From a virus (lineage: Duplodnaviria > Caudoviricetes): a stretch of 64,000 nt of DNA. The notes under the pieces are model-generated. The model had not been told where the DNA came from, ran no database searches, and saw only the letters and a list, made by a program, of their open reading frames with translations. Location: the IMG/VR virus record IMGVR_UViG_3300005512_000001, positions 64,001 through 128,000 of that record, one strand, 5' to 3'. Both the position numbers and the translations under genes were made by a program. Positions 20,250 to 60,605 of this stretch are shown here, in pieces (the first letter of the stretch is position 1; each line of letters opens with the position of its first letter).

Positions 20250-20540
20250 AATGGTCAATCCAATCTGTAAGAATTGTAGGGTCCAAATGGAACGTACCTC
20301 TGACCGATTCCCGGTGAAAGACCCACCGATGAGTGGATTTAAGAGTACAGTTTGGGTGGGCGACCTTTTTAAATGCCCAGAATGTGGTATCCAAATAGTC
20401 CTGAATTTCGGCCAGCCTTTGCGGTCTGAAATATCGGAACATTGGAAACATAAGGCGTTACAGTTCAGATATTCGTAATCGGTTCGTATAACCGGATTTG
20501 CTCGTAGCCACGCATATTGTGTGCGCATTTGGAGCCGAAC

Positions 20541-21470
20541 ATGAAATTCCAAACATTCTCCGCAGTCGTCGGCAATAAAGCCTGTAATGGGAAATGCGAT
20601 TTCTGTGTCGCCAAAATGACAGCGGTCGGCTCGGCCCTGACCCATAATTTCAATTGTAAAAATCTGGAAGTCGCATGCAGATTGGCTGAGAAGGGTGGAG
20701 TTACCACTGGCTTACTGACCGGCAAGGGGGAACCTACGTTGTTCCCTAGTGTGATTACCACATACCTACAAACTATGTCCAGATATTTTCCTCTAATTGA
20801 GCTCCAAACCAATGGGTTGATATTCACACCAATGATTGGACAACGATATGGCACCAAAAAGGTCGAAACAGATGCTGATATCCAACTCTTGACGGGTAGA
20901 TGGAGAGACTATTTAGAGGAGTGGAATGACCAAGGGCTAACAACTGTGTCGCTGTCGATTGCCCACTATGAAAACAACCGCAACCGCGAAATTTATTGTG
21001 ATAGCAACGGCGAGTTCCGATTTGAATACCCCGACCTCGCAACTACTATCAAATTTTTGCATAATATTGGGTTGTCGGTGAGGTTAAGTTGCATTGGACT
21101 TCGGGATTACATTGATGACGACCTGCGACTTCGGAGTTTAATTAGATTCGCTAAGAATTGTAAGGTGGAGCAACTCACATGGCGACCAGTTACCACGCCC
21201 GAATATGTTGGCGAAGACGATGCGGAATGGGTTAAGCGGCTTAGTTGTGACCCACTAAAGACACAATTTCTTACAGAATATGTGCGGAAGAACGGCACAT
21301 TGTTGTTAAGGCTCCCACATGGTGCTGAGGTATTTGATATACAAGGGCAAAATCTTTGCTTGTCCAACTGCCTCACGCGTCAACCCGATACCGACGTGGT
21401 TAGGCAATTAATTTATATGGACGGGCATCTTTACTACGACTGGTGTTATGAAGGAGCGATAATACTGTGA
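20541..21470 (+). CDS. radical SAM protein
   Basis: CNGKCDFC (CxxxCxxC), TGKGEP, QTNG motifs. Confidence 0.9.
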   Translation: MKFQTFSAVVGNKACNGKCDFCVAKMTAVGSALTHNFNCKNLEVACRLAEKGGVTTGLLTGKGEPTLFPSVITTYLQTMSRYFPLIELQTNGLIFTPMIGQRYGTKKVETDADIQLLTGRWRDYLEEWNDQGLTTVSLSIAHYENNRNREIYCDSNGEFRFEYPDLATTIKFLHNIGLSVRLSCIGLRDYIDDDLRLRSLIRFAKNCKVEQLTWRPVTTPEYVGEDDAEWVKRLSCDPLKTQFLTEYVRKNGTLLLRLPHGAEVFDIQGQNLCLSNCLTRQPDTDVVRQLIYMDGHLYYDWCYEGAIIL

Positions 21471-22859: not shown

Positions 22860-23489
22860 ATGATTTTTGTCTTAGAAGACAGCCCCGATAGACTGAAGTG
22901 GTTTAAGCGGCACTGGTCCAATTTAGTACATGCCGACACTCCATTTGCGGGCCTGGAATTGCTCCAAAAACATGATGATTTGGAGATGATTTTCCTGGAC
23001 CACGACCTTGGTGGCCCATTCCAAAGAGGTCCGCATGGCGACGGCATTGATTTAGTCGACCTGATGGTGAAGGAGAAATTACATGTCGATACTCCAATTG
23101 TTGTACATTCTCTAAACCCAGGCGGCGCACAAACCATGGTCAGTACGTTGAGGAAAACGCATTCAGACGTTCGGCGAATTCCATTTTATCTTGTACGCAA
23201 TATGGTAGACGCTGGGGTGGACGACACAAAAGTACGAGAACTCAAACGCAACGCAGTAGACACAATATGCGGCATGGGATTTCCATTATATCATATGACA
23301 GAAGAAGCAGATGGCTATAGGGTGTACATCATTAGAGGCAAGGACGATGTAGAAGGTCGTCACTACGCCCAAGATTGCCCATCTTCATTGATAGATATGA
23401 GCTTGACAGTGTTAGCAGAAATCATTGAGTCTTCTCAACACGAATTTGATGTGCCAATACATCAAAAACGTTTCTTTGGATTGCAATAA
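22860..23489 (+). CDS. cyclic-phosphate-processing receiver-like domain protein
   Basis: IFVLED, FLDHDLG, G.D, VHSLNP.G motifs. Confidence 0.75.
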   Translation: MIFVLEDSPDRLKWFKRHWSNLVHADTPFAGLELLQKHDDLEMIFLDHDLGGPFQRGPHGDGIDLVDLMVKEKLHVDTPIVVHSLNPGGAQTMVSTLRKTHSDVRRIPFYLVRNMVDAGVDDTKVRELKRNAVDTICGMGFPLYHMTEEADGYRVYIIRGKDDVEGRHYAQDCPSSLIDMSLTVLAEIIESSQHEFDVPIHQKRFFGLQ

Positions 23490-24086
23490 TGTCTTTTATT
23501 AAAAAATTATTAGGGCCTATCAAGCGGCTATACCCCAACACCGAGTACGGGTATAATAGTGCGCCACCAGACTTGGACAACCCATGCGATATCATCGTTC
23601 GCCCATTTACTTCTGATGATGATGTATTCTCTATTATGGCAGATGGTAATAAGTATCTCATATGCCATATAAGGAATGCTGATTCGGAGACGTTCAAAAC
23701 TGTTGCAGAGACTTTGGGCGAGTGGAGATTCGAATCGTTAGAACAGGTTTTGACTACTTTGCGGGAAGCTATAGAAACAATCAAATCAAGTAACAGGGAA
23801 TTTTTTGCGGATTGCGATGGACTACCAATATTCTCAGCCGCATGGAAAGAAGAAATGGGTATCTCATAAGGATAGCAAGGATGCGAAGAGCAAGAATTGC
23901 AAGACGAAATATTCCAGGGCAGATGTTTTTGTCTTTTGATTTGCCGCCAAGGCGGAAACACAAAGTTAGTTACAAGGATTTCGACCCCTCCAAACATACA
24001 GTTGGTGATTTGGATTTAAGGACATTACCCAGGAAAGCGTACACCCAGCATGTAGTATCGTGTATGCAAACAGTAGGAGCGAGACA

Positions 24087-24701
24087 ATGAGATTCTTAAG
24101 TAGTAGATGGATGTTGTTATTTATTTTGGTTCTGGCTATCCCAATTTGTGCCAGTGCTGTGGATAGTGTTGTAAACATTTACCAATCCCCAGCCTTGAAA
24201 CAGCAGAAAACTCGGTTCGATAGAACAGAAGCCGCTGCCAAGGCCAGAATGGATTCTTCGATTACTTTAGTGAAGTTTGCGTACGACCGAGAGACCAAAA
24301 CTGCTAGAGAGGAATTAGTTAAAACCTTAAAGGCTGCTACGGATGATGCCACTAAGTCCGGTAACCTCGACCTCGCAATCGCATTAAGAGCTGAGTATAG
24401 GAAGATTGAGGCTGGCGGCACCACGAAGGCCGAGCCTAAAGATGATAGTAAGAAGATTAATACCTCTATTACCTATGAGGATGTGGATAAGTTAGCTGTA
24501 ACTATTCATCCAGATGGAACTGGCAAAGTAGGAAAGCCCGGCACCACGACGTACAGAGGGAATTGGGCTATGAAAGAGGTGATGCTGTTCGAAACAATGA
24601 TACGGTCCCAGCCAGTTGTCTACATTGTTGTTCCAACAACCAAAGGGTTGCGGCTTGGTAAAACCACACCGTTGCCAGTAAAAGTTTCGTCGGCGAAATA
24701 A
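24087..24701 (+). CDS. secreted helical protein
   Basis: AGGAG RBS, signal peptide, TKSGNLDLAIALRAE motif. Confidence 0.65.
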   Translation: MRFLSSRWMLLFILVLAIPICASAVDSVVNIYQSPALKQQKTRFDRTEAAAKARMDSSITLVKFAYDRETKTAREELVKTLKAATDDATKSGNLDLAIALRAEYRKIEAGGTTKAEPKDDSKKINTSITYEDVDKLAVTIHPDGTGKVGKPGTTTYRGNWAMKEVMLFETMIRSQPVVYIVVPTTKGLRLGKTTPLPVKVSSAK

Positions 24702-24708
24702 GGCTCAC

Positions 24709-24840
24709 AGGGGCGAAAGGTTTCGATCGGCTATGCAGCAAGCATCTGACGTGGTAGTCAAGGCGGGTAAATGCCCAAGCAAAGACCGCCGGTGCCCAAG
24801 TACATAGCACGAGACGAGAGTTCGATTCTCTCCGCCTCTA
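24709..24840 (+). ncRNA. ssrA: minimal tmRNA-like RNA (tRNA-like domain only)
   Basis: acceptor AGGGGCG/CGCCTCT with G3.U70 and discriminator A; stemless D-loop ending TTCGA; helix TCG-GCTATG/CATAGC-A-CGA; GAC linker; T-arm GAGAG-TTCGATT-CTCTC; no encoded CCA. Confidence 0.8.
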
Positions 24841-25259
24841 TTATGCGAATTAGAAAAGTAAAATGGCGAGGTTACACCTACTACATCCAGGGACGCGTAT
24901 TCTCTATGGATAAAGGTAGAATCATGCTTCGTAGCCGCGACGGGGAGCCAAATAAAATGGTTTCCAAGAGTGAAGTCGAAGAGGTGCAACCTACAGAGGA
25001 GGTTGATATCTCATGACTAGACGCGAAAAACTCAAGAAATATGGTTTGCCAGGCTCTGTAATTGCTGGCTCAGCCTATTTCCGGCAGTATTGTAGGTATT
25101 GCAATGAACCAATGCGTGCTGACTCAGATGACCCAACTTTGGATTATCAGTGTGACAAGTGCAGTGGGGTGCGTAAAATGCTGACTCCTGGCGGTCACGC
25201 CGGGCCACTAGATTCTGATTCTGGCGGATATCAAGCAAATGCCCGAAAGGCTTTAGAAG

Positions 25260-25856: not shown

Positions 25857-26426
25857 GTGAGGATAAACGGGATTAAACAAATAACAGAGAAGCCCTTTCT
25901 CAATTTATTTGAGACGACGTACACCGACGGCGGCGGCAAAAAAAGAAAATGGATATATGCATCCAGAAACTCTATTTTATCTGAATCGCCCACTACGAAT
26001 GCTGTTGTTATAATCCCCACTCATATAAGCACAGATGGGACAAGAAGACTCGTATTAATTAGCGAATTTCGCGTTCCAATCAGAGGATTTGAGTTAGGAT
26101 TCCCAGCTGGGCTAATTGAGGACAGCTATACGCCAGAAGAAACCGCCAAAATCGAATTGCACCAGGAAACTGGTCTAACCGTTACTAAGGTCATTAAAAC
26201 AAGCCCGCCTGTGTATAGCTCGGCTGGCATGACTGATGAATCAACGATACTCGTGTTTGTAGAATGTACCGGCACGTTATCCACAGACCACTTAGAAGAA
26301 ACAGAGCAGATTAAACCTATGCTCGTTGACTTTGAAGGTCTAAAAATCGTATACCATTCTGATGTGAATTTTGGTGCCAAGTGCTGGCCAATTATTGATG
26401 CCATAATCGACCGTGGTGCAATCTAA
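25857..26426 (+). CDS. Nudix hydrolase, ADP-ribose pyrophosphatase-like
   Basis: EFRVP, PAGLIE...A..EL.QETG Nudix box, SSAGMTDE. Confidence 0.85.
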   Translation: MRINGIKQITEKPFLNLFETTYTDGGGKKRKWIYASRNSILSESPTTNAVVIIPTHISTDGTRRLVLISEFRVPIRGFELGFPAGLIEDSYTPEETAKIELHQETGLTVTKVIKTSPPVYSSAGMTDESTILVFVECTGTLSTDHLEETEQIKPMLVDFEGLKIVYHSDVNFGAKCWPIIDAIIDRGAI

Positions 26427-27709: not shown

Positions 27710-28075
27710 TTGAAGTACGTCGACCTGAGAGAAATCGTAAAGCAGTTGCACAACAGAGGTATGAGTATAGATGAGATTGCGGAGCAAGCAGAACTTGCCC
27801 CGAAAGATATCAAGGTCATGATTAACAAAGGTAAAAAGTTGATTAGGGCCAAAATTGAGTCAGCCACTCGGCTTCTGCGGCCCACCTATAGGGCTATGAC
27901 ACAACAAGATGAAACAGTTGTGCTATTGAGCGATCGGGATAGGGGCAAATTCCTGGATTGTATGGAGAATCCGCCCGAACCAAATGATAAGCTACTTCGG
28001 GCCGCTAAGAGCCATGAATCACGAACTACAGAAAGCAGCAGTACTGGACAGCCTACTCCGCCAAGCTGGGGCTAG
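27710..28075 (+). CDS. HTH protein with DUF1778 (TacA antitoxin-like) C-terminal motif
   Basis: GMSIDEIAE HTH; LSDRDRGKFLDCMENPPEPNDKLLRAA. Confidence 0.55.
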   Translation: MKYVDLREIVKQLHNRGMSIDEIAEQAELAPKDIKVMINKGKKLIRAKIESATRLLRPTYRAMTQQDETVVLLSDRDRGKFLDCMENPPEPNDKLLRAAKSHESRTTESSSTGQPTPPSWG

Positions 28076-29396
28076 GGAATGTCTAATCGTGGGGGGCTTT
28101 GTTCGCGACCGTCTTATGGGAATCCCATGTGCTGACGTAGATATGGAAGTCTATGGTCTCAACTACTCCCAAATCGTTAATGCCATTTCAAATGCTGGGT
28201 TCTCCACTGACCTAGTAGGAAAGGCGTTCGGGATTGTTAAAGTCGATAACTATATCGATGTTAGTGTCCCACGACGGGAGAACAAGCGTGGGGTCGGGCA
28301 TAAAGACTTTGAGATAAACCACGACCCGAACATGACCGCAAGAGAAGCGGCTGCTCGTCGGGATTTCACCATTAATAGTATAGCTATGACTATTAATGGT
28401 GAAATCATAGACCCATTTGGCGGTGAAGCTGACTTACGCGCTGGCATCTTAAAAGCCACCAGTAATGCATTTTCTGAAGACCCACTACGGGTTCTGCGGG
28501 GGATGCAGTTTGCTGGTAGGTTTGGGTTCGTCATGGACGCCAAAACTATCAGAATGTCTGTGGCAATGAAAGATGAATACAAGCACCTCCCCAAAGAACG
28601 AGTATTCAGCGAGTGGCATAAATGGGCTGTAAAATCTAGGTATCCTAGCAAGGCACTTGCTCTATTGCTTGAGACCCGGTGGGTTGAAAATTTCCCAGAA
28701 TTAAACCGGCTGGTGGGTTTGGAGCAGGAAAAGGAGTGGCATCCAGAGGGGGATGTCTATAGTCATACAGGTTGTGCACTAGATGCGGCCATAGGCATCT
28801 GCAATAGGCGAGGATTTACCTCTGAGCAACGAGAGGCTGTTATGTTTGGGGTATTGGGTCATGATTTTGGGAAAGCAACCACTACCACCACGGTTATGAG
28901 GCATGGTATTGAGAGAATTATCTCTCATCGGCATGCAGCTGCAGGTCGGACCATGGTCCTCAACTTCATGGATTCCATTAAGTCACCCCTCAAGCTGCGG
29001 GAGATTGCCGCCATCCTGACTGCTGAGCATATGTCCCACATCAGTAGGCGCAAAGATAAACTTACGGAGCGTATGGTTCGCCGGTTAGCTGTTAGGCTGC
29101 ATCCAGCAACGATAGATTTATGGGCTGCAGTATGTGAGTCGGACGCCTCTGGTAGACACCCCTTACCCCCGACAAATCCAGTAGCCCAGTGGGAGGAGGC
29201 GGCTGTTAAGTTGTGCGTCCAAGCCAACCGACCCAAGCCAATCCTTATGGGTAGACACCTAATCACCGAAGGATACGAGCCTGGAGTAGAGATGGGAAAG
29301 TTGCTAGATGCTGCGTTTGAGGCACAATTAGATGGAGAGTTCATTGACTTGAACAGTGCTTTGGAGTTTGTACATAAACAGCAACAAAAAGATTGA
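28014..29396 (+). CDS. cca: CCA-adding tRNA nucleotidyltransferase with HD domain
   Basis: VGGFVRD, DVD, RRDFTINS, DPFGG, EDPLRVLR, HPEGDV..H, HDFGK. Confidence 0.92.
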   Translation: MNHELQKAAVLDSLLRQAGARECLIVGGFVRDRLMGIPCADVDMEVYGLNYSQIVNAISNAGFSTDLVGKAFGIVKVDNYIDVSVPRRENKRGVGHKDFEINHDPNMTAREAAARRDFTINSIAMTINGEIIDPFGGEADLRAGILKATSNAFSEDPLRVLRGMQFAGRFGFVMDAKTIRMSVAMKDEYKHLPKERVFSEWHKWAVKSRYPSKALALLLETRWVENFPELNRLVGLEQEKEWHPEGDVYSHTGCALDAAIGICNRRGFTSEQREAVMFGVLGHDFGKATTTTTVMRHGIERIISHRHAAAGRTMVLNFMDSIKSPLKLREIAAILTAEHMSHISRRKDKLTERMVRRLAVRLHPATIDLWAAVCESDASGRHPLPPTNPVAQWEEAAVKLCVQANRPKPILMGRHLITEGYEPGVEMGKLLDAAFEAQLDGEFIDLNSALEFVHKQQQKD

Positions 29397-60068: not shown

Positions 60069-60605
60069 ATGAGTCTTTCTGATAATTTAGAATATATCTT
60101 CAATTCAGAACTAGCAAAAAGGTTGTTAATACGTTATTTCTCTACCAAAGGTTTCCATGAGAATTTCGACAAAAAAGTATATCCACCACAGATTCAAGAC
60201 TTGGTTGAATCTGTGCCAGAATTAAATGGTAAGTTGGAGATAATCCCGCATGCTATAGAAGTAGACCCAACTAATGGTTTCGCCAGAATTGGTTGGAATT
60301 TATTTATTTTGGGCAATCAGCGAATGTATTTAGGTGAGACTGAACATTCACAGCTTCAAGAACTAGCCCAGCAACTTGAATCTGGAATGGTAGTTGTTGA
60401 GGGAGAAGAAGAACAGGCTATGCGGCAAGGAAGAAGTGCAAGAGACATTATTGGATGGATAGTTCGAGTGCTTGGGAAAAATGAGGCTGGGATTATTCGC
60501 ATGATACCACAAGCAGACCAAATGGGATTCCAACACCTAGGCCCTCAAGGCACCGATTTCTATGAAAGACCTAGAACTATACGACCAGAAACGAAGTTCA
60601 ATTAA
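60069..60605 (+). CDS. hypothetical protein, probably late
   Basis: GAGGTG RBS; TCAAATATA upstream. Confidence 0.65.
   Translation: MSLSDNLEYIFNSELAKRLLIRYFSTKGFHENFDKKVYPPQIQDLVESVPELNGKLEIIPHAIEVDPTNGFARIGWNLFILGNQRMYLGETEHSQLQELAQQLESGMVVVEGEEEQAMRQGRSARDIIGWIVRVLGKNEAGIIRMIPQADQMGFQHLGPQGTDFYERPRTIRPETKFN

Follow-up and report, generated by a model that had tools for sequence, protein, structure and literature searches.

A message-less miniature tmRNA gene in an uncultured jumbo phage and its conserved family of relatives

A 132-nt tmRNA-like gene in a jumbo phage genome

The window analyzed here is a stretch of 64,000 nt, corresponding to bases 64001-128000 of IMG/VR record IMGVR_UViG_3300005512_000001, a sequence of 341,434 bp with direct terminal repeats. 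The record, from an uncultured jumbo phage, is phage-like in its PHROGs matches, which include a DNA helicase and SbcCD-like nuclease subunits. Judged by the helicase, the nearest cultured or huge phages are Tunturiibacter phage Tunturi_5, Bacillus phage G, huge uncultured phages, LR756501/2, and Stenotrophomonas CM1, at ~28-30% identity, and a search for related loci using the phage's CCA-adding enzyme as query found no close relatives. When Tunturi_5, LR756501/2, and Stenotrophomonas CM1 were searched, each being separated from the window phage by that same helicase distance, no copy of the RNA described below was found.

A 132-nt RNA gene, hereafter the mini-tmRNA, occupies the gap separating ORF 24060-24701 from a downstream ORF whose first ATG within the gap lies at 24843; all three are on the + strand. 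The upstream ORF (P0001) had no homologue except itself among 5.8 billion proteins. The features of the gene and of its surroundings are as follows.

20517-21470: weak radical-SAM match (domain search)
22860-23489: cREC_REC (cyclic-phosphate processing receiver) protein (domain search)
24709..24840, + strand: mini-tmRNA gene, 132 nt, with a predicted mature length of ~135 nt including CCA (RF00023 full-model alignment and position in the gap)
24709..24715, + strand: acceptor 5' strand AGGGGCG, containing A1 and G3 (7/7 pairs with 24833-24839)
24716..24726, + strand: stemless D-loop analogue AAAGGTTTCGA, consensus GG.UUCGA (sequence; fits the Rfam tmRNA consensus GGaUUCGAC)
24727..24735, + strand: helix 2, 5' strand TCGGCTATG (pairs with 24803-24812 over 9 bp, with A24809 bulged)
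24742..24746, + strand: helix 3, 5' strand GCATC (pairs with GGTGC at 24791-24795; constrained fold)
24747..24760, + strand: hairpin A, TGAC-GTGGTA-GTCA, with a GUGGUA hexaloop and a stem of 24747-50 with 24757-60 (fold and covariation)
24762..24790, + strand: hairpin B, GGCGG/CCGCC (24762-66 with 24786-90), with the 19-nt A-rich loop GTAAATGCCCAAGCAAAGA carrying the motif GCCY...GCARA (fold and covariation)
24803..24812, + strand: helix 2, 3' strand CATAGCACGA (sequence, constrained fold, and covariation)
24813-24815 and 24816-24832, + strand: GAC junction and T arm GAGAG-TTCGATT-CTCTC (cmscan local match, tmRNA model positions 346-363)
24833..24840, + strand: acceptor 3' strand CGCCTCT, with U70 = T24837, and discriminator A73 at 24840 (sequence; G3 = G24711)
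25857-26426: Nudix hydrolase (domain search)
27984..29396, + strand: phage CCA-adding-type enzyme with a PolyA_pol head, an RNA-binding part, and an HD domain (PF01743, E 2.5e-17; PF12627; PF01966)

The initial annotation, which was made from the sequence alone, had described an alanine-type acceptor stem with G3.U70 and discriminator A, a stemless D loop, helix 2, a GAC linker, and a perfect T arm in non-permuted order. Each of these elements is present at the positions given there, with all seven acceptor pairs formed and the gene order non-permuted, and the GG and UUCGA of the D loop are invariant or nearly so in alignments of relatives (A1, A3). The three short interior helices that it had listed (GCATC/GGTGC, TGAC/GTCA, and GGCGG/CCGCC) were likewise recovered, both in the free MFE fold (-48.2 kcal/mol, z = -2.8, with 0/200 shuffles as stable) and in a fold constrained to keep the tRNA-like domain, under which the interior was unchanged. 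This interior comprises ~67 nt (24736-24802) arranged as nested hairpins in the folds. Inspection of the interior by eye, which is a weak test, revealed no covarying pseudoknot, including between the hairpin-A loop and downstream sequence.

We examined how established tmRNA and tRNA models treat the locus. ARAGORN reported neither a tmRNA nor a tRNA there, cmscan at the gathering score (RF00023 cut-off, 47 bits) returned nothing in the window, and cmscan in local mode at E <= 10 recovered the T arm only. When the whole model was aligned (glocal), RF00023 positions 1-374 matched 24709-24843 at 41.7 bits (E = 3.8e-16 for the genome), which is below the 47-bit cut-off, while the phage's own tRNA-Ala scored 30.8 bits under the same model, i.e., 11 bits below the mini-tmRNA. 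Because an independent model aligns the RNA over its whole length with such a lead over tRNA-Ala, the match goes beyond chance. With the mitochondrial tmRNA model RF02544, no match at the locus was among those listed for E <= 10, overlapping matches of the same clan being collapsed; the permuted tmRNA model RF04321 reached 11-14 bits there, on the T arm only, and found nothing significant in the whole phage genome. The tmRNA assignment made in the initial annotation is upheld by the full-length RF00023 alignment but not by ARAGORN, gathering-score cmscan, or RF02544. Our own covariance model, R1 (described below), gave the window copy 106.7 bits, the copy being itself among the seed sequences. 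A tRNA-Ala identity was rejected: ARAGORN finds no tRNA, the D stem and anticodon arm are lacking, and the phage's true tRNA-Ala lies elsewhere. The acceptor and T arm of that tRNA-Ala differ from those of the mini-tmRNA, so the latter is not a recent copy of it. Annotation of phages thus misses genes of this kind, to which ARAGORN is blind, and the window copy also lies below the Rfam cut-off.

The mini-tmRNA gene does not encode CCA, its 3' neighboring sequence being TTA. This had been noticed in the initial annotation together with a CCA-adding enzyme ~3 kb downstream, and the protein at 27984-29396, with its PolyA_pol head and HD domain, bears out that identification. None of the 44 tRNA genes of the phage, which lie at 34-46 kb and, for the most part, at 305-335 kb of the genome, encodes CCA (0/44), and most are followed by T-rich tails. 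As with those tRNAs, CCA must be added to the mini-tmRNA post-transcriptionally, presumably by this enzyme, an association that we infer. Neither a sigma-70-like promoter on the gene's own strand nor an intrinsic terminator was found flanking the mini-tmRNA, so the RNA is probably cut from a longer transcript.

A conserved family with covarying helices

Relatives were sought in IMG/VR with a pattern scan that combined a 5' D-loop motif, a gap, and a T loop, with position 70 unconstrained and tandem tRNAs filtered with ARAGORN. Among chance and tandem-tRNA matches, the scans yielded nine true relatives of 120-137 nt. All nine viral members possess 7/7 acceptor pairs, G3.U70, and A73, in patterns that did not fix position 70. 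Scans of metagenome contigs and species-representative genomes, whose patterns did fix U70, were added, giving at least 35 distinct minis of 80-137 nt from phage contigs, metagenomes, and some Chloroflexota chromosomes; G3.U70 occurs in 35/35 relatives, a count that is unbiased only for the nine viral matches. BLASTN of the window locus, and also of the mini from relative L021, against 50,697 phage records gave no match, and with other minis as queries the matches were limited to the T arm and 3' end of full-length phage tmRNAs.

All viral relatives except L187, for which no match was reported, exceed the RF00023 cut-off, at 51.7-69.6 bits, and L192, L005, L266, and L021 are called tmRNA by cmscan at the gathering score. 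In the alignment of L192 to RF00023, 38 nt stand in place of 253 model positions, and ~253 positions are deleted in most relatives; the L192 equivalent of helix 3 aligns in cmscan to the distal portion (CAUGC/GCAUG) of tmRNA helix 2. No full-length tmRNA was found in the nine mini-bearing viral records, three of which are rated 100% complete (53, 88, and 356 kb).

To assess conservation more quantitatively, R1 was built from 12 sequences sharing the architecture of the window copy, and all 35 minis were aligned to it (alignment A3; 29 modeled pairs). In this alignment, which is fitted to R1 and so favors the modeled structure, 88.5% of cells held standard pairs, compared with 62.3% in shuffled and 39-53% in slid controls. 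Similarly, 258 cells were changed on both sides, compared with 87 (shuffled) and 36-69 (slid), and the covariation score was 0.544, compared with 0.156 and at most 0.11, respectively. Compensatory change was seen in 26/29 pairs, to which the acceptor (5/7 pairs), helix 2 (10/10 modeled), hairpin A, the hairpin B stem (4/4 modeled), and the T arm (4/5) all contribute, and T-arm cells are 100% paired across the 35 minis. An independent analysis of 12 sequences with MAFFT and RNAalifold recovered the same helices, with 21/24 pairs compensated. Covariation in relatives, which the initial annotation had named as a way of checking its reading, is thus strong. Together, these results confirm that the RNA is a real gene in a real conserved family.

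The same data bear on the idea that the RNA is a functionless remnant of a full-length phage tmRNA, left by a recent deletion, which the initial annotation had recognized as fatal to its own reading. Full-length phage tmRNAs do exist, such as the 360-nt tmRNA of Calle_1, and the window copy falls short of the Rfam cut-off. However, the 35 diverged copies keep their architecture by compensatory change, and the minis of L005 and L192 are only 69% identical, yet retain every helix within a syntenic block of genes whose products share 68-85% identity. Moreover, the window copy is the only one of the 35 with A1-U72, which it has in place of G1-C72, a compensated double change. With the conserved family in hand and full-length tmRNAs missing from the nine viral records, we rejected recent deletion or decay, which is hardly credible as an account of this gene. 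A compensated A1-U72 pair has also been described in the tmRNA of Carsonella (PMC4131195). An attP-type ssrA fragment was rejected as well, since the RNA retains both halves of its acceptor and the phage genome ends in direct terminal repeats.

In the lineage of L005, L192, and L238, the block reads, in order, Cpn10 (GroES-like), Hsp20, mini, sigma-70-like factor, Gp157, and SNF2 helicase (L005:235-4626), so that the mini sits in a protein-quality-control neighborhood. No gene neighbor is conserved across the mini family as a whole.

A stretch in Gordonia phage GMA2 (L448:357-435; KR063281 ~60392-60470) was not counted as a member, owing to two acceptor mismatches. It is an unannotated 79-nt segment resembling the tRNA-like domain (TLD), with a good T arm and 29.6 bits under R1, and may be a degenerate mini-tmRNA.

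A structured interior without a message

The window copy belongs to a subclass of at least eight minis with helix 3, a GUGGUA hairpin, and an A-rich GCCY...GCARA hairpin. The motif GUGGUAG recurs at one fixed position in seven minis of 132-137 nt (the window copy, L021, L236, L204, L275, L197, and L206), and L310 has a close variant; only ~0.6 occurrences would be expected in shuffled interiors. GUGGUA forms the loop of a 4-bp hairpin, the stem of which covaries (GGGC/GCCC, UGGC/GCCA, and GCGC/GCGC). The hairpin-B loop motif GCCY-n(2-4)-GCARA was present in seven class-I minis, compared with ~1 expected; the regular expression for GCCY...GCARA also matched two other minis at a different position, which we read as spurious. 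The other mini subclasses have different interiors.

Tagging by tmRNA needs both a resume codon and a stop codon. When the 35 minis were compared, no conserved tag frame was observed, consistent with the initial annotation, which had recognized no tag ORF in the window copy. A frame ending in hydrophobic-Ala-stop occurs in only 3/35 minis, any frame being allowed, and several minis are without a stop in almost any frame. We nevertheless considered whether the RNA is a true but ultra-short tmRNA, in which the GCA of hairpin B serves as the resume codon and a few codons lead to a stop, adding a tag that is not a degron. A frame opened by GCA AAU ends after 8 codons at a shared stop position in L005, L308, and L192, and spans 10 codons in L204, and natural 2-aa tags are catalogued (PMC11915505). 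In contrast, the GCA-opened frame meets no stop before the 3' end in the window copy, L021, L236, L275, or L266. In L238, a 1-nt indel relative to its close relative L192 reduces the only candidate frame to 3 codons while the enclosing stem is kept, and the putative codons lie inside covarying stems. A short tag is therefore very improbable.

As for precedents, the initial annotation had pointed to tag-less forms in protist mitochondria. Message-less mitochondrial tmRNAs are indeed known, CDS-less forms from mitochondria and plastids being catalogued (PMC11915505), but the phage precedent had been omitted. This is mycobacteriophage DS6A, listed as a "TLD only" tmRNA by Hudson, Lau & Williams 2014 (PMC4131195; tmID 11587, tmRNA Website). 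We located the DS6A RNA at JN698994 28478-28560, where it spans 83 nt and is unannotated in the record; it scores 43.2 bits under RF00023, compared with 41.7 bits for the window RNA, and is found by R1 at 46 bits. Like the window RNA, it is phage-encoded and non-permuted, with a complete TLD, G3.U70, and A73, no tag frame or pseudoknots, and no encoded CCA. The two differ in that helix 2 of the 83-nt DS6A RNA is closed by one small hairpin, whereas the 132-nt window RNA contains helix 3 and two hairpins, and in that DS6A is a temperate 60-kb actinophage, whereas the window phage has a jumbo genome of 341 kb and 44 tRNA genes.

Full-length tmRNAs are present in ~2% of phage genomes (PMC9004378). 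In comparison with the standard one-piece tmRNA (RF00023; also that of Bxz1-like mycobacteriophages, Bacillus phage G, and Cellulophaga phage Calle_1), the acceptor, D-loop analogue, helix 2, GAC, and T arm of the minis align to the model ends, while ~253 positions (PK1, the resume codon and tag frame, helix 5, and PK2-4) give way to ~40-65 nt. The organellar message-less tmRNAs, i.e., those of jakobid and oomycete mitochondria (RF02544) and two plastid forms of ~65 bp, likewise consist of a TLD without a tag frame and are presumed to depend on SmpB (PMC11915505), but their genes are usually permuted and without an interior. Stable phage RNAs of similar size are also encoded beside the tRNA genes of T4, namely rnaC (139 nt) and rnaD (119 nt), also called species 1 and 2. 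The 3' domain of rnaC (its 3' 92 nt; L460:2909-3047, - strand) combines a T arm with a 7-bp acceptor that contains G3.U70. We rejected rnaC and rnaD as family members, since R1 gave rnaC a weak 22.8 bits compared with at least 46 for members, GG-UUCGA is missing, U takes the discriminator position, and additional 5' sequence extends beyond the acceptor.

The tmRNA of Calle_1 (L317:1174-1533) is called by ARAGORN as full-length, at 360 nt. Its 22-aa tag, AQIEANMEAVNAILNLEVAVGV, is atypical and flagged as "not identified," and the GenBank tmRNA feature lies ~50 nt off the ARAGORN call.

In the literature, we found no description of structured mini-tmRNAs of 115-137 nt. What is new here is therefore the longer structured form, which is largely unannotated, and its spread, the TLD-only phage tmRNA itself having already been published for DS6A.

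Possible roles in ribosome rescue

Trans-translation is the main system by which bacteria rescue ribosomes and tag the resulting proteins, and it is a drug target. Within the tRNA-like domain of tmRNA, AlaRS recognizes G3.U70 and A73, EF-Tu binds the acceptor and T arm, and the conserved junction of GG-UUCGA, GAC, and helix 2 is the SmpB site. The RNA probably interferes with or bypasses the host rescue-and-tag system. More specifically, we infer, with a probability of roughly 0.45, that it is a functional message-less miniature tmRNA that competes with host tmRNA for SmpB and stalled ribosomes and thereby suppresses tagging.

Such a mini-tmRNA would be co-transcribed with the flanking + strand genes and then excised as a tRNA is, by RNase P at A24709 and by a 3' cut after A24840. 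The phage CCA-adding enzyme would supply CCA, and host AlaRS would alanylate the product via G3.U70 and A73. The window phage encodes no smpB, Pth, or ArfB, and no smpB was found in five other mini-bearing phage genomes (at least 91% complete). Because the phage has no smpB of its own, the mini-tmRNA would have to recruit the SmpB of the host. Together with SmpB, and with EF-Tu once charged, it would compete with full-length host tmRNA for SmpB and the empty A site. An RNA with neither a resume codon nor a stop codon, and without a pseudoknot ring, could not add a degradation tag, and the net outcome would be a suppression of ssrA tagging during infection.

Several lines of evidence support competition: the anatomy and independent model score of the RNA, G3.U70 and A73 in all nine viral members, relatives that exceed the Rfam cut-off, the covariation of the family, the lack of a phage smpB and of a tag frame, the absence of full-length tmRNA from the nine mini-bearing viral records, the occurrence of Chloroflexota minis with a host-type D loop beside a normal tmRNA, and the precedent of DS6A. 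In PMC4131195, with reference to Mao et al. 2009, a molecule similar to the DS6A RNA is described as a strong inhibitor of tmRNA in both chargeable and non-chargeable form, perhaps through titration of SmpB, and the statement on inhibition is repeated for DS6A in the 2025 tmRNA database paper (PMC11915505). On the other hand, as the published inhibitor worked uncharged, titration alone does not explain why G3.U70, A73, the T arm, and CCA are so strictly kept, and the retention of these charging determinants speaks for an action on the ribosome. A simple sponge also leaves the conserved interior (GUGGUA and GCCY...GCARA) without a role, and the window copy itself is below the Rfam cut-off and has the unusual A1-U72 pair.

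These difficulties are better met by the main rival to competition, tag-free rescue, which explains both the conserved charging determinants and the conserved interior. Here, the alanyl-mini with SmpB and EF-Tu would enter stalled ribosomes, accept the nascent chain and, lacking a message that would retain it, leave as peptidyl-RNA, to be hydrolyzed by host factors of the Pth or ArfB type. The ribosome would thereby be freed and phage proteins would remain untagged, and the hairpin-B loop may fill the mRNA channel in lieu of a message. The family-wide conservation of alanine identity, T arm, and CCA fits a need for charging, the interior is likewise conserved, and some bacteria keep a chromosomal mini beside a full tmRNA. 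The B loop (UAAAAAGCC...GCAAA) may also resemble the A-rich segment and the GCA resume codon of standard tmRNAs such as that of E. coli. For message-less mitochondrial tmRNAs found together with SmpB, a role in dealing with incomplete mRNAs has been proposed (PMC11915505). Tag-free rescue faces objections of its own, as neither Pth nor ArfB is encoded by the phage. We also know of no mechanism by which a peptidyl-TLD is released. In addition, the only published experiment that we know of on such a molecule is reported to have shown inhibition rather than rescue (PMC4131195). On balance, we regard tag-free rescue as possible but doubtful.

By extension, the minis of 115-137 nt might constitute a distinct functional class, in which the two-hairpin insert is a module that fills the mRNA channel or decoding site, or binds a partner, and lets the alanyl-RNA either resolve stalls without tagging or switch trans-translation off, in phages and some bacteria; we put this forward tentatively, as the less probable case. 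The structured interior offers specific mutational targets. If widespread, natural message-less tmRNAs, found in phages with genomes of 50-356 kb as well as on some bacterial chromosomes, would be ready-made modulators of trans-translation, and the family bears on what message-less tmRNAs do, the mitochondrial and plastid forms included.

A further explanation is that the RNA acts as a decoy or substitute for a host nuclease or defense system that attacks tRNA-Ala, tmRNA, or tRNA-like RNAs, and may belong to a neighborhood for tRNA repair or protection. The genes around the window copy, including those for the cREC_REC protein, the Nudix hydrolase, and the CCA/HD enzyme, would suit this role, and AcrIIIA1 (PMC11662646) is an example of a phage factor that turns t(m)RNA fragments against defense. 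However, contexts differ widely across the family, with no conserved gene neighbor, and the conserved part is specifically a tRNA-like domain of the SmpB/AlaRS type. For the initial suggestion of a decoy against tRNA-targeting nucleases, we found no evidence, and a role in defense appears improbable.

The mini RNA is not restricted to phages, and its bacterial chromosomal copies suggest a cellular use rather than one directed only against a host, which counts against competition as the sole role. Three Chloroflexota MAGs carry minis of 120-123 nt, and two of them also possess, on another contig, a normal tmRNA of 385-424 nt with a standard tag; the minis of those two genomes share the host-type GGCUUCGA D loop. 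In one Chloroflexota family, minis were present in 6/41 sampled genomes, one of which has two copies, while no mini was found in 120 other genomes of the same class, where stricter filters were applied. This sporadic distribution suggests mobility. Some of the Chloroflexota minis lie deep within contigs of 1.6 Mb and nearly 4 Mb. The loci are as follows.

L451:5001-5126: Chloroflexota mini locus
L452:5001-5123: Chloroflexota mini locus
L454, L455, L457, and L459: further Chloroflexota mini loci

Their contexts are cellular and varied, comprising a histidine kinase with response regulators and S30AE/HPF, a P-type ATPase, prephenate dehydratase, Fic, and HNH endonucleases. One Chloroflexota mini lies 58 nt after the S30AE/HPF ribosome-hibernation gene, and several adjoin small HNH endonucleases.
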